From the NCBI RefSeq assembly GCF_003334335.1, contig NZ_QOWQ01000014.1: a stretch of DNA of 64,000 nucleotides. One strand, written 5' to 3'. The notes beneath the pieces were generated by a model. The model had not been told where the DNA came from, did not search any database, and saw only the letters and a list, made by a program, of their open reading frames with translations. Shown here piece after piece: positions 1,551 to 13,211 of this stretch (position 1 is its first letter; each line of letters starts with the position of its first letter). A program made the translations under genes and the position numbers. The stretch is from Escherichia coli. GTDB taxonomy: Bacteria; Pseudomonadota; Gammaproteobacteria; Enterobacterales; Enterobacteriaceae.

Positions 1551-2354
1551 TTAACGCTTCAGAGCGTCGCTTAACTCGTCACGCATGTTCGCCAGCATGG
1601 CTTTAACAACGCGCGGGTTACCAGCAACGATGTTACCGGTCAGCATGTAGTTATGACCACCGGTGAAGTCGCTGACGATGCCGCCCGCTTCACGAACCAG
1701 CAGCTCGCCTGCGGCGAAGTCCCACGGGCGCAGACCGATTTCAAAGAAACCGTCAACACGACCCGCAGCGACGTAAGCCAGATCCAGCGCCGCAGAACCG
1801 GTACGACGGAAGTCTGCACATTCGTTGAACAGTTTGCCGACGATGTTGATGTAGGTAGTGGCGTACTGTTTTGCTTTGAACGGGAAGCCGGTCGCCAGAA
1901 TAGTACCGTCGAGATCGCGAGCGGTGCTGCCGCGCAGTCGGTAGCCGTTCAGCTGTGCGCCCTGACCGCGAGTGGCGGTGAACAGTTCGTTACGCATAGG
2001 ATCGTATACCACAGCAACTTCGGTGCGGCCTTTGATACGAACAGCGATAGATACCGCGAAGTGCGGCAGACGTTTGATAAAGTTGGTAGTGCCATCCAGT
2101 GGATCGATAACCCATTGAACATCCTGATCAGTACCTTCAAGTTCACCGCTTTCTTCGGTGATGATGGTGTGCTGTGGGTAAGATTTACGAATCGTGTCGA
2201 TAATCACCGCTTCGGCAGCTTTATCTACGTTGGTCACGAAATCGTTACTGCCTTTCTGGCTCGCTTCTACAGCGTCCGGGGTTTCATAGTTTTTGGCAAT
2301 TAAATTACCCGCCTTGCGCGCTGCGCGCACGGCGATGTTCAGCATCGGATGCAT
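1551..2354 (-). CDS. suhB: Inositol monophosphatase SuhB
   Basis: ORF 267 aa, MHPMLNIAVRAARKAGNLIAK..., IMPase family motifs (DPLDGT, WDFAAG). Confidence 0.95.
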   Translation of the reverse strand: MHPMLNIAVRAARKAGNLIAKNYETPDAVEASQKGSNDFVTNVDKAAEAVIIDTIRKSYPQHTIITEESGELEGTDQDVQWVIDPLDGTTNFIKRLPHFAVSIAVRIKGRTEVAVVYDPMRNELFTATRGQGAQLNGYRLRGSTARDLDGTILATGFPFKAKQYATTYINIVGKLFNECADFRRTGSAALDLAYVAAGRVDGFFEIGLRPWDFAAGELLVREAGGIVSDFTGGHNYMLTGNIVAGNPRVVKAMLANMRDELSDALKR

Positions 2355-2472
2355 CGGTCTCTCTCACTGGATGTTAAAGAACGGGAAAACGGCGCAGAGT
2401 ATAGCAGCGAGATCGGCATCTGTCTTCGTTTTATGATAAGATGCGTGAATAATCTTTAGATGAAGAAAGACA

Positions 2473-3213
2473 ATGCTGCAAAATATTCGAATTGTGCTGG
2501 TGGAGACGTCACACACCGGCAATATGGGTTCTGTTGCCCGTGCCATGAAAACAATGGGATTAACCAATCTGTGGCTGGTTAATCCACTGGTGAAACCCGA
2601 CTCCCAGGCGATTGCCCTGGCAGCAGGGGCCAGCGATGTGATTGGTAATGCTCACATCGTCGATACGCTCGACGAAGCGTTAGCCGGTTGTAGCCTGGTG
2701 GTGGGCACCAGCGCACGTTCCCGCACGCTGCCATGGCCGATGCTCGACCCGCGCGAATGCGGCCTGAAAAGCGTCGCTGAAGCGGCAAATACCCCGGTGG
2801 CGCTGGTGTTTGGTCGCGAGCGCGTCGGCTTGACCAATGAAGAGTTGCAGAAATGCCATTATCATGTCGCGATTGCGGCTAACCCGGAATACAGCTCGCT
2901 GAACCTGGCGATGGCGGTTCAGGTTATTGCCTATGAAGTGCGCATGGCCTGGCTGGCAACTCAGGAAAACGGCGAGCAGGTCGAGCATGAAGAGACGCCG
3001 TATCCGCTGGTCGATGATCTGGAGCGTTTTTATGGTCATCTGGAACAAACGCTGCTGGCAACCGGTTTTATCCGTGAAAACCATCCGGGGCAGGTGATGA
3101 ATAAATTGCGCCGTCTGTTTACCCGTGCGCGCCCGGAAAGCCAGGAGTTGAATATCCTGCGCGGGATTCTGGCTTCTATTGAGCAGCAGAATAAAGGTAA
3201 CAAGGCCGAATAA
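2473..3213 (+). CDS. trmJ: tRNA (cytidine/uridine-2'-O)-methyltransferase TrmJ (SpoU family)
   Basis: ORF 246 aa, [30 protein letters not shown]...; sits directly upstream of the isc operon. Confidence 0.95.
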
Positions 3214-3395
<182 letters not shown>

Positions 3396-3440
3396 CAACA
3401 GGTACAAACGCCACGATAAAAAAATGGCACTGAAGGTTAA

Positions 3441-3490
3441 ATACCCGACTAAATCAGTCAAGTAAATAGTTGACCAATTTACTCGGGAAT
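3441..3490 (+). promoter_or_regulatory. Two adjacent IscR type-1 operator sites in the iscR promoter
   Basis: 3441..3465 atacccgactaaatcagtcaagtaa matches the type-1 consensus ATASYYGACTRwwwYAGTCRRSTAT at about 24 of 25 positions. 3466..3490 atagttgaccaatttactcgggaat is a weaker second copy. Both lie 85-135 bp upstream of the iscR ATG. Confidence 0.6.
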
Positions 3491-3573
3491 GTCAGACTTG
3501 ACCCTGCTATGCAATACCCCCACTTTTACAATAAAAAACCCCGGGCAGGGGCGAGTTTGAGGTGAAGTAAGAC

Positions 3574-6769: not shown

Positions 6770-8620
6770 ATGGCCTTATTACAAATTAGTGAACCTGGTT
6801 TGAGTGCTGCGCCGCATCAGCGTCGTCTGGCGGCCGGTATTGACCTGGGCACAACCAACTCGCTGGTGGCGACAGTGCGCAGCGGTCAGGCCGAAACGTT
6901 AGCCGATCATGAAGGCCGTCACCTGCTGCCATCTGTTGTTCACTATCAACAGCAAGGGCATTCGGTGGGTTATGACGCGCGTACTAATGCAGCGCTCGAT
7001 ACCGCCAACACAATTAGTTCTGTTAAACGCCTGATGGGACGCTCGCTGGCTGATATCCAGCAACGCTATCCGCATCTGCCTTATCAATTCCAGGCCAGCG
7101 AAAACGGCCTGCCGATGATTGAAACGGCGGCGGGGCTGCTGAACCCGGTGCGCGTTTCTGCGGACATCCTCAAAGCACTGGCGGCGCGGGCAACTGAAGC
7201 CCTGGCAGGCGAGCTGGATGGTGTAGTTATCACCGTTCCGGCGTACTTTGACGATGCCCAGCGTCAGGGCACCAAAGACGCGGCGCGTCTGGCGGGCCTT
7301 CACGTCCTGCGCTTACTTAACGAACCGACCGCTGCGGCTATCGCCTACGGGCTGGATTCCGGTCAGGAAGGCGTGATCGCCGTTTATGACCTCGGTGGCG
7401 GGACGTTTGATATTTCCATTCTGCGCTTAAGTCGCGGCGTGTTTGAAGTGCTGGCAACCGGCGGTGATTCCGCGCTCGGCGGCGATGATTTCGACCATCT
7501 GCTGGCGGATTACATTCGCGAGCAGGCGGGCATTCCTGATCGTAGCGATAACCGCGTTCAGCGTGAACTGCTGGATGCCGCCATTGCAGCCAAAATCGCG
7601 CTGAGCGATGCGGACTCCGTGACCGTTAACGTTGCGGGCTGGCAGGGCGAAATCAGCCGTGAACAATTCAATGAACTGATCGCGCCACTGGTAAAACGAA
7701 CCTTACTGGCTTGTCGTCGCGCGCTGAAAGACGCGGGTGTAGAAGCTGATGAAGTGCTGGAAGTGGTGATGGTGGGCGGTTCTACTCGCGTGCCGCTGGT
7801 GCGTGAACGGGTAGGCGAATTTTTCGGTCGTCCACCGCTGACTTCCATCGACCCGGATAAAGTCGTCGCTATTGGCGCGGCGATTCAGGCGGATATTCTG
7901 GTGGGTAACAAGCCAGACAGCGAAATGCTGTTGCTTGATGTGATCCCACTGTCGCTGGGCCTCGAAACGATGGGCGGCCTGGTGGAGAAAGTGATTCCGC
8001 GTAATACCACTATTCCGGTGGCCCGCGCTCAGGATTTCACCACCTTTAAAGATGGTCAGACGGCGATGTCTATCCATGTAATGCAGGGTGAGCGCGAACT
8101 GGTGCAGGACTGCCGCTCACTGGCGCGTTTTGCGCTGCGTGGTATTCCGGCGCTACCGGCTGGCGGTGCGCATATTCGCGTGACGTTCCAGGTCGATGCC
8201 GACGGTCTTTTGAGCGTGACGGCGATGGAGAAATCCACCGGCGTTGAGGCGTCTATTCAGGTCAAACCGTCTTACGGTCTGACCGATAGCGAAATCGCTT
8301 CGATGATCAAAGACTCAATGAGCTATGCCGAGCAGGACGTAAAAGCCCGAATGCTGGCAGAACAAAAAGTAGAAGCGGCGCGTGTGCTGGAAAGTCTGCA
8401 CGGCGCGCTGGCTGCTGATGCCGCGCTGTTAAGCGCCGCAGAACGTCAGGTCATTGACGATGCTGCCGCTCACCTGAGTGAAGTGGCGCAGGGCGATGAT
8501 GTTGACGCCATCGAACAAGCGATTAAAAACGTAGACAAACAAACCCAGGATTTCGCCGCTCGCCGCATGGACCAGTCGGTTCGTCGTGCGCTGAAAGGCC
8601 ATTCCGTGGACGAGGTTTAA
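6770..8620 (+). CDS. hscA: Hsp70-type chaperone HscA
   Basis: ORF 6716..8620. Start trimmed to ATG at 6770 ([15 protein letters not shown]...) for 616 aa. Hsp70 motifs IDLGTTNS and DLGGGTFD. Confidence 0.95.
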
Positions 8621-9169: not shown

Positions 9170-9346
9170 TTTCCGCGTCATGCTTCACGCCGCAGATGCG
9201 TTGGCTGCGCTCGTTCACCCCAGTCACATAGTTATCTATGCTCCTGGGGCTTCACTCACTTGCCGCCTTCCTGCAACGCGAATCATTTAGCGGAAAAATC
9301 CTGGGGCTGCCAACTGGCGGCCCTTTTACAAAGAAGGATAACTAAA

Positions 9347-10630
9347 ATGACAGAAGCGATGAAGATTACCCTCTCTACCCAACCTGCCGACGCGCGCTGG
9401 GGAGAAAAAGCAACTTACAGCATTAATAATGACGGCATTACCCTGCATTTGAACGGGGCAGACGATCTGGGGCTGATCCAGCGTGCGGCGCGCAAGATTG
9501 ACGGTCTGGGCATCAAGCATGTTCAGTTAAGCGGTGAAGGCTGGGATGCGGATCGCTGCTGGGCATTCTGGCAAGGTTACAAAGCCCCGAAAGGCACGCG
9601 TAAAGTGGTGTGGCCGGATCTGGACGATGCCCAGCGCCAGGAACTGGATAACCGCCTGATGATCATCGACTGGGTGCGTGACACCATCAACGCACCGGCA
9701 GAAGAATTGGGACCATCGCAACTGGCACAGCGTGCTGTTGATCTGATCAGCAACGTCGCGGGCGATCGTGTGACTTATCGGATCACCAAAGGCGAAGATC
9801 TGCGTGAGCAAGGTTATATGGGGCTGCACACAGTCGGACGCGGTTCAGAACGTTCTCCGGTATTGCTGGCGCTGGATTACAACCCAACTGGCGATAAAGA
9901 AGCGCCAGTGTACGCGTGCCTGGTAGGTAAAGGTATCACTTTTGACTCCGGCGGCTACAGCATCAAACAGACTGCGTTTATGGACTCGATGAAGTCGGAC
10001 ATGGGCGGCGCGGCAACGGTTACCGGGGCGCTGGCATTTGCCATTACGCGCGGACTGAACAAGCGCGTGAAGCTGTTCCTCTGCTGTGCGGATAACCTGA
10101 TTAGCGGCAATGCGTTCAAGCTGGGCGATATCATCACCTATCGCAACGGTAAAAAAGTTGAAGTGATGAACACTGATGCCGAAGGGCGTCTGGTGCTTGC
10201 CGATGGTCTGATTGATGCCAGTGCGCAGAAACCGGAAATGATCATTGATGCGGCGACCCTCACCGGGGTGGCGAAAACTGCGCTGGGTAATGATTATCAC
10301 GCGCTGTTCAGTTTTGACGATGCGCTGGCCGGTCGCTTGCTGGCGAGTGCCGCGCAGGAGAACGAACCGTTCTGGCGTCTGCCGCTGGCGGAGTTCCACC
10401 GCAGCCAGCTGCCGTCTAACTTTGCCGAACTGAACAATACCGGAAGCGCGGCGTATCCGGCAGGCGCGAGCACGGCGGCGGGCTTCCTGTCGCACTTTGT
10501 TGAGAACTATCAGCAAGGCTGGCTGCATATCGACTGCTCGGCGACTTACCGTAAAGCGCCGGTTGAACAGTGGTCTGCGGGCGCTACGGGACTTGGTGTG
10601 CGCACGATAGCTAATCTGTTAACGGCGTAA
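9347..10630 (+). CDS. pepB: Peptidase B (M17 leucyl aminopeptidase family)
   Basis: ORF 9260..10630. Start trimmed to ATG at 9347 ([21 protein letters not shown]...) for 427 aa. M17 motif NTDAEGRL. Confidence 0.93.
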
Positions 10631-10638
10631 ACTAATAT

Positions 10639-10736
<98 letters not shown>

Positions 10737-10771: not shown

Positions 10772-11548
10772 ATGTCCGAAACAAAAAACGAACTTGAAGA
10801 CCTGCTGGAAAAAGCAGCAACTGAACCGGCGCACCGCCCGGCCTTTTTCCGTACTCTACTGGAATCCACCGTCTGGGTGCCTGGTACGGCGGCGCAGGGC
10901 GAGGCTGTGGTTGAAGATAGCGCGCTTGATTTACAGCACTGGGAAAAAGAAGACGGCACCAGCGTCATTCCTTTTTTCACCTCGTTAGAAGCACTTCAAC
11001 AGGCGGTTGAAGACGAACAGGCATTTGTCGTAATGCCCGTTCGCACGCTGTTTGAGATGACACTTGGCGAAACGCTCTTCCTTAATGCCAAAATGCCAAC
11101 CGGTAAAGAATTTATGCCGCGTGAAATCAGTTTGTTGATTGGTGAAGAGGGAAATCCGCTGAGCAGCCAGGAAATCCTGGAAGGCGGTGAATCGCTGATA
11201 TTATCGGAAGTCGCAGAGCCGCCAGCACAAATGATTGATTCACTCACCACCTTATTTAAAACCATTAAGCCGGTGAAGCGTGCTTTTATTTGTTCAATTA
11301 AAGAGAACGAAGAGGCACAGCCTAATTTACTTATTGGCATTGAAGCCGATGGTGATATCGAAGAAATTATTCAGGCGACGGGAAGTGTAGCGACCGATAC
11401 ATTACCTGGCGATGAACCAATCGATATTTGTCAGGTGAAAAAAGGGGAAAAAGGAATTAGCCACTTTATTACCGAACATATTGCGCCATTCTATGAACGT
11501 CGCTGGGGTGGTTTTTTGCGTGACTTTAAACAGAATCGGATAATCTAA
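10772..11548 (+). CDS. sseB: SseB (enhanced serine sensitivity protein B)
   Basis: Track ORF starts at GTG 10763. ATG at 10772 gives MSETKNELEDLLEKAATEPAHRPAFFRTL... (258 aa). Confidence 0.9.
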   Translation: MSETKNELEDLLEKAATEPAHRPAFFRTLLESTVWVPGTAAQGEAVVEDSALDLQHWEKEDGTSVIPFFTSLEALQQAVEDEQAFVVMPVRTLFEMTLGETLFLNAKMPTGKEFMPREISLLIGEEGNPLSSQEILEGGESLILSEVAEPPAQMIDSLTTLFKTIKPVKRAFICSIKENEEAQPNLLIGIEADGDIEEIIQATGSVATDTLPGDEPIDICQVKKGEKGISHFITEHIAPFYERRWGGFLRDFKQNRII

Positions 11549-11860
11549 AATATGCCGCCCAAAGGGCGGCATTCGGGCTTACTTGCTGCTCTGAAGGTTG
11601 TTAACCACCAGTAAATTGTCGCCGGAGAGACTCCGGTTATTATTTACCTCGGTTAACAGCGCACCAGAAACAATAAGTACGATACAAAAGCACCGTATCT
11701 TCATTGTGCGGTCCATGCGAAGACCGCATCACGACAGCACCACTGGCGATATTGCCGCGATAGCAAGCGCTGTGAAACACCTGCATTTACGGCCACGGAA
11801 CATCCTTTCCTAAAGCCAGCGCCCGTTTGCGAGACGGCGGAAAGGGCCGCAGTGGATAAT
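11549..11860 (-). ncRNA. ryfA: RyfA-like ~300-nt transcript (small-protein mRNA / sRNA) in the sseB-sseA intergenic region; ends at the hairpin 11554..11570
   Basis: Minus-strand unit inferred from an intrinsic terminator oriented for the minus strand (stem gccgccc/gggcggc at 11554..11570, U-tract given by the complement of 11545..11553), a minus-strand TATTAT -10-like hexamer at 11866..11871 (no convincing -35 found) and the enclosed small ORF. Position matches my recollection of where ryfA lies relative to sseB. Exact ends are uncertain. Confidence 0.45.
11579..11716 (-). CDS. Candidate small membrane protein, 45 codons (41 from the second ATG at 11704): MDRTMKIRCFCIVLIVSGALLTEVNNNRSLSGDNLLVVNNLQSSK; TimP-like type I toxin candidate
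   Basis: Hand translation of the minus strand. Hydrophobic N-terminal segment IRCFCIVLIVSGALL followed by a polar Asn-rich tail. Stop codon lies 8 nt upstream of the terminator hairpin. No strong Shine-Dalgarno sequence seen. Below the ORF track's length cutoff. Confidence 0.4.
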   Translation of the reverse strand: MDRTMKIRCFCIVLIVSGALLTEVNNNRSLSGDNLLVVNNLQSSK

Positions 11861-12027
11861 ACACTAACAGAACAATAATAACTCTCTTTTGCTTGACAAA
11901 AAGAGAGTTACTGGCGAGTATTGTCTCCGCTGAGACGCGCTTGCATTACTACGGTAATACAACCTGCTGGAAAGGCCGCGAACCGGACCAGCAACAAAAA
12001 ACCGCCTGATTTTGGCGGTTTTTTGTT
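11834..12027 (+). ncRNA. sRNA-like module copy 1 (~194 bp): internal inverted repeat around TTGACA, conserved 22-nt box, intrinsic terminator
   Basis: Inverted repeat actctctttt/aaaagagagt flanks gcTTGACA (11893..11898). Conserved box cctgctggaaaggccgcgaacc at 11963..11984. Hairpin aaaaaaccgcc-tgatttt-ggcggtttttt near 11995..12027 with T-tracts on both strands, so strand assignment is tentative. Longest internal ORF is 12 codons. Confidence 0.4.
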
Positions 12028-12155
12028 TTTTAAAGGAAAGTGAATTTACATGTTTAAGTAATATCTTTTACCGGTTAGAATTTTTAATTTTGAGCAGGAT
12101 TTGTTTATATTTGTCTGAATTCGGACTAATAAGCCAGGTTATTTTATTACCGAAC

Positions 12156-12349
12156 ACGGCGGAAAGGGCCGGTGTCGATAATACGCTAAATAAACAATAA
12201 TTACTCTCTTTTGCTTGACAAAAAGAGAGTTACTGGTGAGTATTGTTTTGCTGTGAAGCACCTGCGTTGCTCATGTAACACAAGTCAACCTGCTGGAAAG
12301 GCCGCGAACCAGACTAGCAATAAAAAACCGCCAAATTCGGCGGTTTTTT
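12156..12349 (+). ncRNA. sRNA-like module copy 2 (~194 bp), diverged paralogue of copy 1
   Basis: Same architecture 322 bp downstream: identical start acggcggaaagggcc, same inverted repeat and TTGACA, identical 22-nt box at 12289..12310, terminator aaaaaaccgcc-aaattc-ggcggtttttt at 12322..12349. Central part diverged (roughly 75-80% identity by eye). Longest ORF 14 codons. The terminator also closes sseA on the minus strand. Confidence 0.35.
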
Positions 12350-12365
12350 ATTGCCTGTAAAATAC

Positions 12366-13211
12366 TTATTTCACTGGCTCAACCGGTAAATCTGCCCGCG
12401 CGCCCCATTCACTCCATGCGCCGTCGTACAGTTTCACGTTTGGCACATCCAGCGTCGCGAGTGCTAACAAAACCACGGCTGCCGTTACACCAGAGCCGCA
12501 GCTGACGATAATTGGTTTGTCGTAGCTGACGCCGCGACCAAAAAATATCGCATCCAGTTCATCGGTCGTTTTTAGTTCGCCTTCGCGCACCAGTTCCGTC
12601 CACGGAACATTCAGTGCTCCGGGAATATGTCCGCGACGTAAACCTGGGCGAGGTTCATCAACTTCTGCGTTAAAACGTGCAGCCGGGCGGGCATCAATAA
12701 TTTGCGCCGTATTTTCATGGCTTGCCAATAATACATCGGTTACTTTCACCACGGCTTCAGGATTAAACGCGGCGTTAAACTCTCCTTCCGGCAGCTCTAC
12801 TGCACCTTCTTCTAACAGCAGATCATCGCGCTGCCAGCCTGCAAGTCCACCCCCCAGAATCGACACTTTCTCTACACCAAAGGTGCGCAGCATCCACCAT
12901 GCTCGTGGGGCTGAGAAAAGATTACCTTCGTCATAGACAATCAGGTGCTTATCCTGGTTAACGCCTAATTCACGCATCGCCACGGCGAACGTTTCCGGGC
13001 GCGGCAGCATGTGCGGAAGCGGGGAAGTGTGATCAGAAAGCGCTTCGATATCAAAAAACACTGCGCCGGGAATATGTCCATTCAGATACTCCTGAGCAAC
13101 GTTACGATCCTCCTGTCCAGGCGACGCCATGCGGGCATCGATAATCTGAATTTCCGGGTCATCAATATGTTCGGCGAGCCAGTCGGCTCCTACAAACCAT
13201 GTCGTGGACAT
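12366..13211 (-). CDS. sseA: 3-mercaptopyruvate sulfurtransferase SseA (tandem rhodanese domains)
   Basis: ORF 12366..13370. Start trimmed to internal ATG (MSTTWFVGADWLAEHIDD...) for 281 aa. Catalytic-cysteine context CGSGVTA present. Confidence 0.9.
   Translation of the reverse strand: MSTTWFVGADWLAEHIDDPEIQIIDARMASPGQEDRNVAQEYLNGHIPGAVFFDIEALSDHTSPLPHMLPRPETFAVAMRELGVNQDKHLIVYDEGNLFSAPRAWWMLRTFGVEKVSILGGGLAGWQRDDLLLEEGAVELPEGEFNAAFNPEAVVKVTDVLLASHENTAQIIDARPAARFNAEVDEPRPGLRRGHIPGALNVPWTELVREGELKTTDELDAIFFGRGVSYDKPIIVSCGSGVTAAVVLLALATLDVPNVKLYDGAWSEWGARADLPVEPVK

Follow-up and report, generated by a model that had tools for sequence, protein, structure and literature searches.

The closest described relative of the locus studied here is the timP-TimR type I toxin-antitoxin system of Salmonella enterica, formerly called ryfA or STnc2070 (Andresen 2020; Eleftheraki & Holmqvist 2024; Eleftheraki 2026). 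We examined the corresponding locus of Escherichia coli in a stretch of 64,000 nt (contig NZ_QOWQ01000014.1, assembly GCF_003334335.1; hereafter the window), where a preliminary description had pointed to a minus-strand transcript next to sseB, with a 45-codon hydrophobic open reading frame (ORF), as a RyfA/TimP-like toxin candidate. In Salmonella, toxicity is due to the protein and not to the RNA, overproduction makes the inner membrane leaky, and the 5' end of the small RNA (sRNA) TimR pairs with the timP 5' untranslated region (UTR) and blocks translation, as shown by compensatory mutations and in vitro translation (PMC7667032). The Shine-Dalgarno (SD) sequence of Salmonella timP is trapped in stem-loop 4 (SL4), a pseudoknot between SL1 and SL3 is required for initiation, and TimR binds SL2 of the pseudoknotted timP and destabilises it (PMC11228461). 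A pairing between sites 2 and 4 frees the SD, while a pairing between sites 1 and 2 locks the inactive form (PMC13000454).

A second related system is ryfA1/ryfB1 and ryfA2/ryfB2 of Shigella dysenteriae (Fris 2017), arranged as tandem units which each carry a RyfA of ~300 nt and a divergent RyfB of ~100 nt. The specificity of these sibling pairs is set by a variable patch (the 'variable region') in the antisense binding site, and RyfB1 is specific for RyfA1 (PMC5333039); that study treated the RyfA RNAs as non-coding. Further chromosomal type I systems of E. coli with divergently encoded partners are tisB/istR-1, shoB/ohsC, zorO/orzO and dinQ/agrB, which likewise combine a small hydrophobic membrane toxin, a ribosome binding site buried in structure and a locally encoded, trans-acting antisense sRNA directed at the 5' UTR far from the ribosome binding site. 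The mRNAs of these four systems have to be processed nucleolytically and often depend on a ribosome standby site; timP, by contrast, is activated by refolding alone, and TimP has a Sec-type signal-like N-terminus instead of the plain transmembrane helix of those toxins (PMC7667032).

The locus in the window belongs to the same Rfam and protein families as Salmonella timP and lies in the same sseA-sseB neighbourhood. The gene order is pepB, sseB, timP, sseA, yfhM, with timP between sseA and sseB and convergent with sseB. The Salmonella locus has a further gene, STM2534, which separates timP from sseA, and a single TimR adjacent to timP, whereas in the window the cognate TimR is 400 nt off, behind a non-cognate TimR and an IS128 relic. 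TimP is 38 aa in Salmonella versus 41 aa in E. coli, and the C-terminal half is divergent. Compared with the Shigella array, the window has one toxin deleted, with IS128 left in its place, and the surviving toxin stands beside the wrong antitoxin. Toxicity and repression were shown by experiment in Salmonella, whereas the E. coli genes are likened to it by sequence. The features of the toxin transcript are as follows.

11547..11850, minus strand: timP mRNA, that is RyfA RNA, 304 nt (Rfam RF00126; K-12 ryfA, b4440, maps exactly here; minimum free energy, MFE)
11579..11704, minus strand: timP coding sequence (CDS), 41 aa, MKIRCFCIVLIVSGALLTEVNNNRSLSGDNLLVVNNLQSSK, plus TAA (called by the Prokaryotic Genome Annotation Pipeline, PGAP; NF040796; cross-genus conservation; K-12 b4812)
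11714..11716, minus strand: upstream in-frame ATG of the 45-codon form, probably unused (in the SL4 loop/stem, mRNA nt 135-137; no SD upstream; the hidden Markov model, HMM, of TimP starts at residue 5)
11552..11572, minus strand: timP intrinsic terminator (9-bp stem with 7 G-C pairs, T-rich tail ATTTTAGATT; the terminal hairpin of the Rfam model)
11856..11861, minus strand: presumed timP -10 box TATTAT, ending 6 nt upstream of the RNA 5' end at 11850

Scanning with the Rfam RyfA covariance model, which the preliminary description had proposed as a check, gave a full-length match to RF00126 at 11547..11850 on the minus strand (model 1-296/296, 314.9 bits against a gathering threshold of 80 bits, E 8.9e-88), with no non-canonical pairs flagged. 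The expected unit of ~300 nt thus corresponds to a match of 304 nt, and the MFE of this RNA is -129.4 kcal/mol (z = -5.4 against shuffled sequences). The ORF list contains the minus-strand frame 11579..11716 exactly as it had been translated, and reading from the second ATG at 11704 gives 41 aa. As shown by the NCBIfam profile NF040796 (toxic_TimP; curated cutoff 45 bits), the 41-aa form scored 86.8 bits, with residues 1-40 aligned to profile 1-40/40, while the 45-aa form scored 86.4 bits over residues 5-44. The RefSeq annotation by PGAP calls timP at 11579..11704 (minus strand); the CDS was found in genomes 100% identical here, and timP in all top matches.

The window differs from K-12 MG1655 by 1 base across 11300..12500, and the curated features of NC_000913.3 correspond to 11547..11850 (ryfA, b4440), 11579..11704 (timP, b4812, labelled 'putative toxic protein TimP') and 12250..12349 (timR, b4811). 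Moreover, ryfA was found in all 5426 of the 5426 complete E. coli genomes of our collection. These results identify the small hydrophobic ORF as the annotated E. coli timP, carried on the ryfA RNA, the toxin half of a timP-TimR type I system. Since K-12 carries ryfA, timP and timR, and the 45-codon ORF has been published for the uropathogenic E. coli (UPEC) strain CFT073, the finding is correct and already known: both genes are annotated in K-12, and three papers have worked out the mechanism in Salmonella.

The two ends of the transcript were considered separately. The minus-strand terminator that had been placed at 11554..11570 was confirmed as the G+C core of the hairpin at 11552..11572, which has its T-run on the timP side only; the distance from the timP stop codon (11581..11579) is 6 nt to the full stem and 8 nt to this core, and hairpin and T-run are conserved in all genera compared. 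Because the plus-strand sequence after the hairpin reads TCGGGCTT and not a T-run, the hairpin does not serve sseB. For sseB, which is convergent with timP, no obvious intrinsic terminator of its own was seen, only this single shared hairpin. As a further detail of this junction, the annotated 3' end of the RyfA/timP RNA (11547..11548) overlaps the sseB stop codon by 2 nt. At the 5' end, the TATTAT hexamer reported at 11866..11871 is absent from that position: minus-strand TATTAT hexamers lie at 11856..11861 and 11875..11880, so that the former position was 10 nt off. A -10-like hexamer (TATTAT, TATGAT, TACACT or TAAAAT) occurs at the same place as the box at 11856..11861 in homologues of other genera.

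To compare the locus across genera, genome contigs (298 Gb) were scanned with an SL4/SD motif, GCGGTCNNNGCANNGACCGCAC. The motif proved too permissive, and the matches listed were mostly chance G+C-rich palindromes in unrelated phyla; 13 true homologues were found among them. With the window these gave 14 sequences from Escherichia, Citrobacter, Superficieibacter, Rahnella, Yersinia and Erwinia, 13 of which entered the structure alignment. The second ATG (CACAATGAA, at 11704) is invariant in 14/14 sequences from the six genera. The ORF that starts there is 38-41 aa long with a TAA stop in all 14, and all its indels keep the reading frame, their lengths being divisible by three. Most of the homologues have stops in both alternative frames, with frame +2 free of stops in three Yersinia sequences. 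The N-terminus carries a conserved TimP motif, MK(I)R[YC]xCIxxxVxG, while the C-terminal half diverges freely, a drift which has also been reported in PMC7667032. In the window the peptide begins MKIR followed by CFCIVLIVSGALL, and residues 4-19 have a mean Kyte-Doolittle value of +1.78, compared with -0.55 over the remaining residues, which suggests a charged N-terminus followed by a hydrophobic, signal-peptide-like segment. Within 3.5 kb around the locus there are 51 ORFs of at least 20 aa, so the ORF by itself is not beyond chance; its reality rests on the family-model matches and the cross-genus conservation.

We then examined whether the translation switch described in Salmonella is present, testing each element on our own 13-sequence alignment. 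In the following lines mRNA nt n equals window position 11851 - n, and all elements lie on the minus strand.

11805..11844, minus strand: SL1, nt 7-46 (Rfam consensus structure; lower stem paired in 95% of alignment cells, upper hairpin in 100%)
11815..11821, minus strand: site 1, nt 30-36, within SL1 (pseudoknot and switch)
11789..11794, minus strand: site 2, nt 57-62, GGCCGU (its partner is site 4 in the active form and site 1 in the inactive one)
11764..11783, minus strand: SL2, nt 68-87 (99% paired in the alignment)
11769..11787, minus strand: TimR-a binding site, nt 64-82 (extends over the SL2 5' arm and loop; forms an ungapped duplex of 19 nt with TimR-a)
11728..11761, minus strand: SL3, nt 90-123 (92% paired)
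11741..11747, minus strand: site 3, nt 104-110, within SL3 (pseudoknot)
11708..11727, minus strand: SL4, nt 124-143 (pairs 124-130 x 137-143, all 7 invariant in 13 sequences; recovered in the MFE fold)

The SD sequence GGA (nt 137-139, 11712..11714) is held in the 3' arm of SL4, 7 nt before the AUG at nt 147. For the pseudoknot pairing 30-36 x 104-110, all 91 alignment cells (100%) were paired and 3/7 pairs showed compensatory double changes, while slid controls were paired in only 14-81%. The site 2-4 pairing (57-62 x 124-129) was likewise present in 100% across the 13 sequences; it showed no double-sided changes, and its support is therefore conservation and not covariation. The site 1-2 pairing (33-37 x 57-61) was found in 11-13 of the 13 sequences and is present in the E. 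coli MFE fold. The pairs G33-C103, C34-G102 (M2/M2'), C57-G125 and G33-C57 of Salmonella correspond to 35-105, 36-104, 59-127 and 35-59 here, a constant offset of +2 which also holds for the ORF start (+145 vs 147). Thus the same SL1-SL4, site 1-3 pseudoknot, site 2-4/1-2 switch and equivalent AUG are found, with the TimR 5' end directed at SL2 as in Salmonella, and the whole switch is present and under constraint in this sequence. The TimR-a binding site is hypervariable between alleles and genera.

The 5' UTR also offers a side observation. The start of the short upstream ORF known from the Salmonella 5' UTR (11794..11796, nt 55-57) is GUG here, AUG in some other E. coli alleles, and neither AUG nor GUG in other genera. 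Such variation is consistent with the published result that the short upstream ORF is dispensable.

By homology with the Salmonella experiments, the switch would work in the same way in E. coli. The timP mRNA would be made constitutively and translated poorly, its SD being locked in SL4. Pairing of site 1 in SL1 with site 3 in SL3 would then form the pseudoknot, and site 2 would pair with the 5' flank of SL4 and free the SD, so that activation of translation would be a purely structural refolding, with the site 1-2 pairing holding the inactive form. The TimR 5' end would pair with SL2, destabilise the pseudoknot and block initiation; in a K-12-type strain this partner would be the distal copy, TimR-a (12250..12349). 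The 41-aa TimP, as in Salmonella, would insert in the inner membrane and make it leaky when overproduced. Taken as a whole, the best explanation is that 11547..11850 encodes the toxin mRNA of timP-TimR, a type I system of enterobacteria, to which we assign a probability of about 0.93. The identity of the RNA and the ORF, their conservation, the presence and covariation of the structural elements and the antisense specificity are observed here, while membrane toxicity, operation of the switch and repression by TimR in E. coli are expected from the Salmonella work.

Several points weigh against this explanation, most of them on whether E. coli makes a toxic TimP. A study of avian pathogenic E. 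coli (APEC) from 2026 states that whether E. coli TimP is toxic 'remains to be determined', and found minimal effects of a timR deletion (PMC13188913). In UPEC CFT073, ryfA alleles with the ORF destroyed still complement all ryfA phenotypes (PMC8205139), and a protein product of ryfA1 was looked for in S. dysenteriae but not detected (PMC5333039). We found no ribosome-profiling statement on the timP ORF of E. coli in the literature searched. In our own comparison, Salmonella timP was not among the matches listed from the motif scan, and the TimP HMM and the six-genus alignment were used in its place; variable sites per codon position numbered 29/27/31, with no clear third-position excess and no coding signature. 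The argument for coding rests on the conservation of start, stop and frame. In favour of the explanation, overexpression of RyfA slowed the growth of MG1655 (PMC4606813), which is indirect as to toxicity. By analogy, E. coli TimP would be expected to be toxic on overproduction.

The strongest alternative is that the 304-nt RyfA acts mainly as a base-pairing regulator of stress, fimbrial and virulence genes, with the ORF dispensable or vestigial, or as a dual-function RNA in which riboregulation dominates. The full complementation by ORF-disrupted alleles in UPEC speaks for it, as does APEC, in which deletion of ryfA attenuates virulence while a ryfA-timR double mutant is wild-type-like, suggesting an interplay between the RNAs (PMC13188913); in S. 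dysenteriae, overproduction of RyfA1 lowers ompC mRNA although no protein was detected (PMC5333039). Against this account, the ORF, its start, its stop and its frame are kept in six genera, though the C-terminal codons diverge freely; the entire 5' UTR forms an intricate, covarying structure centred on SD and start codon; and Salmonella genetics assign toxicity to the protein and not to the RNA. The riboregulatory and toxin roles are not mutually exclusive, and a dual-function or mainly riboregulatory RyfA is a live rival, possible but on balance unlikely.

The preliminary description had also noted antisense-capable small RNAs nearby. As shown by self-comparison of the locus, a block of ~190 bp at 11834..12023 is duplicated at 12156..12349 (D1 90%, D2 84%), and holds the first ~17 nt of timP, the timP promoter, a palindromic divergent-promoter element and a plus-strand sRNA gene of ~100 nt. 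This sRNA gene has a perfect TTGACA -35 box and a terminator, so that there are two TimR genes, which are listed here with the other features between timP and sseA.

12250..12349, plus strand: TimR-a, the predicted cognate antitoxin sRNA (K-12 timR, b4811), beside the sseA 3' end, at a distance of 400 nt from the 5' end of timP
11929..12027, plus strand: TimR-b, a paralogous, non-cognate orphan TimR directly beside timP, with no feature in NC_000913.3
11879..11910, no strand: perfect palindrome with 12-bp arms AACTCTCTTTTG...CAAAAAGAGAGTT and an 8-bp centre, in the divergent timP/TimR-b promoter region, repeated at 12203..12232
11982..12190, minus strand: IS128 (Rfam RF00125), relic of a second timP unit (262.1 bits against a gathering threshold of 80 bits, model 1-209/209)

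TimR-a has its -35 box TTGACA at 12215..12220 and its terminator hairpin arms within 12317..12354, and its nt 1-19 pair with timP nt 64-82 over 19 nt (17 Watson-Crick and 2 G.U pairs, -32.6 kcal/mol). The expected antisense partner is therefore present as a divergent sRNA with a 19-nt match to the timP 5' UTR, annotated timR in K-12; as a refinement, the cognate antitoxin is not the adjacent small RNA but the copy 400 nt away. By this complementarity, TimR-a would repress TimP translation here. Predictions of full-length TimR-timP duplexes gave unrealistic multi-loop structures of about -68 kcal/mol for both copies and were set aside in favour of ungapped local runs. Sub-threshold Rfam matches on the TimR copies (OhsC, OrzO-P, AgrB, RNAI, rimP leader) were treated as terminator-driven noise.

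An alternative is that the adjacent TimR-b is the antitoxin of the timP in the window. In all 12/12 loci of other strains and genera the cognate TimR is directly adjacent, 82-100 nt upstream of timP; TimR-b keeps an intact promoter (TTGACA at 11893..11898), terminator and conserved core, and its partial match overlaps the same timP site. This match, however, is at best an 11-nt run with 3 G.U pairs (-13.6 kcal/mol) against the 19 nt (-32.6 kcal/mol) of TimR-a, and TimR-b pairs perfectly over 16 nt (-33 kcal/mol) with the timP-b alleles of other E. coli instead. In addition, RyfB1 of S. dysenteriae acts on RyfA1 and not on RyfA2 (PMC5333039), and the curators of K-12 place timR at the distal copy. 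We consider it improbable that TimR-b is the partner of this timP. The non-adjacent position of the cognate TimR-a, which departs from the arrangement in the other 12 loci, is a rearrangement of the locus and not grounds for excluding it from the timP-TimR family.

Outside the specificity region, a TimR core, GCUGG(A/G)AAGGCCGC, which includes GGAAAGGCCGC, is near-invariant across six genera (11968..11981 and 12294..12307 here) and is complementary to the conserved timP 5' end (11836..11850). The E. coli core pairs with timP nt 1-15 at -22.0 kcal/mol versus -12.7 +/- 2.8 for shuffled sequences, 0.4% of which were as good. Both segments lack informative variation, and covariation cannot decide on this contact; the mechanism paper makes no mention of it. 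The complementarity may reflect a second contact that competes with the lower stem of SL1, or a trace of the origin of TimR as an inverted partial copy of the timP leader. Both units retain the palindrome of the promoter region, which is centred on the TimR -35 box and might act as an operator for some regulator or represent a pair of overlapping face-to-face -35 elements (TTGACA / TTGTCA).

The remaining alternatives concern the reading frame. A product of 45 aa from the first ATG at 11716 was considered, as every E. coli allele examined has this in-frame codon, and a 45-aa ORF at +135..+270 has been described for CFT073 (PMC8205139). The codon is AAG in 5/14 homologues (four Rahnella and Erwinia), however, and lies inside the loop/stem of SL4 with no SD in front; the TimP HMM begins at residue 5, and both PGAP and the K-12 curators use the second ATG. 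Moreover, an ATG->AAG mutation at the Salmonella start equivalent to 11704 abolishes both protein and toxicity (PMC7667032), which proves that start in Salmonella. The 45-aa product is very unlikely, and the conserved product appears to be the 41-aa form starting at 11704; the ORF had thus been quoted correctly, while its length as a product is corrected from 45 to 41 aa. That the ORF is merely a chance open frame in a structured non-coding RNA, as the abundance of ORFs of such sizes by chance and the variable sites without third-position excess might suggest, is scarcely credible: the family HMM matches, the start is invariant and the stop conserved, indels preserve the frame, the alternative frames are mostly closed, and the spacing of the SD is conserved.

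With the timP-TimR assignment retained, the region between the two TimR genes could be interpreted. Rfam lists IS128 as an sRNA gene. In the window it joins a copy of the timP promoter (TATTAT at 12178..12183) and nt 1-16 of timP-a (12172..12157) to the tail of a duplicated fragment from the sseB 3' end and the spacer between the units. Its end falls in the TimR-b terminator, and its 3' 46 nt are perfectly antisense to TimR-b. No hydrophobic ORF of the IS128 region is in the ORF list. Alignment to an intact two-unit strain (L005) showed one clean deletion of 357 bp in the distal unit, which starts at nt 17 of timP-a, extends into the sseB' fragment and has left its junction at 12157|12156. By this alignment, the IS128 'sRNA' is a deletion derivative of a second timP unit, and the K-12-type locus the remnant of a two-unit array. 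The surviving class-a toxin sits in the proximal slot behind the TimR-b promoter, and the sequence turns from b-like to a-like within the first ~24 nt, which suggests recombination or gene conversion besides the deletion.

Loci of other E. coli genomes account for the mismatch between timP and its neighbouring TimR.

L003: one unit, [TimR-b | timP-b]
L005, 1240..2410: two units, [TimR-a | timP-a | sseB' fragment | spacer][TimR-b | timP-b]
L002 (E. coli GF4-3), 1600..3500: three units, c, a and b, with three timP CDSs called by PGAP and a period of ~680 bp

Each unit of L002 carries a fragment of 84-87 bp from the 3' end of sseB, which is listed in the annotation as an sseB pseudogene, and L005 and L002 are arrays of the same kind as that of S. 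dysenteriae. In every intact unit, timP is matched by the 5' end of the TimR of that unit, over 19 nt for a-a, 16 nt for b-b and 15 nt for c-c and at about -31 to -33 kcal/mol in each case, while the a/b cross-pairs are weak (about -9 to -14 kcal/mol). An exception is TimR-c on timP-a, with a G.U-rich run of 18 nt at -22 kcal/mol. The E. coli timPR locus thus comprises one to three tandem units with at least three antisense specificity classes (a, b and c). Over the 5,426 complete genomes, in counts that are approximate as BLAST joins pieces, the IS128 body was found in 2,243/5,426 and the deletion junction in at most 1,782; 1,061 genomes had the non-cognate TimR-b/timP-a adjacency at >=99% identity and 522 had it at 95-99%, and 3,327 genomes fell in the 90-95% identity band expected for the cognate b|b type. 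No description of IS128 as a timP relic, of the orphan TimR-b in K-12 or of a third specificity class was found in the literature searched, a search too incomplete to prove novelty. As a side result, the architecture of the K-12-type locus is modest and new only in part.

We also considered, speculatively, that the K-12-type timPR locus is a working three-RNA circuit and not a toxin and an antitoxin with debris. The TimR core would then serve as a second, specificity-independent contact, allowing cross-talk by TimR-b and titration of TimR by IS128. The idea is based on the timP leader motif kept at the 5' end of IS128 and on an orphan TimR-b fully equipped for expression. We regard such a circuit as doubtful; if true, it could explain the weak phenotypes of single timR deletions in E. 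coli.

Three minor observations were made outside these subjects. In Citrobacter amalonaticus (L073, ~8030..8333), a timP copy aligns only from mRNA nt 57 onward and lacks SL1; upstream of nt 57 lies the antisense of a TimR 3' end and terminator, which looks like another rearranged or decayed unit. In the window, a sub-threshold Rfam match to naRNA4/CssrE lies in the pepB-sseB spacer (10625..10669, 40 vs 59.5 bits), and another to Vibrio AS5 upstream of pepB (9171..9295, 45 vs 96 bits); both are probably chance matches or resemble repetitive extragenic palindromic (REP) elements.

In summary, the analysis closes the question of what this transcript is, and corrects two details of the preliminary description, the start of the 41-aa product and the position of the -10 box. 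The architecture of the locus matters mainly for the design and interpretation of timPR experiments in E. coli. In K-12-type strains, a second TimR gene that is not annotated lies between timP and the timR of the annotation. Strains differ in the number of units and in specificity class, so that results obtained in CFT073, APEC or Shigella are not transferable to K-12 without checking that TimR and timP match. E. coli as a species holds a natural set of orthogonal toxin-antitoxin RNA pairs.

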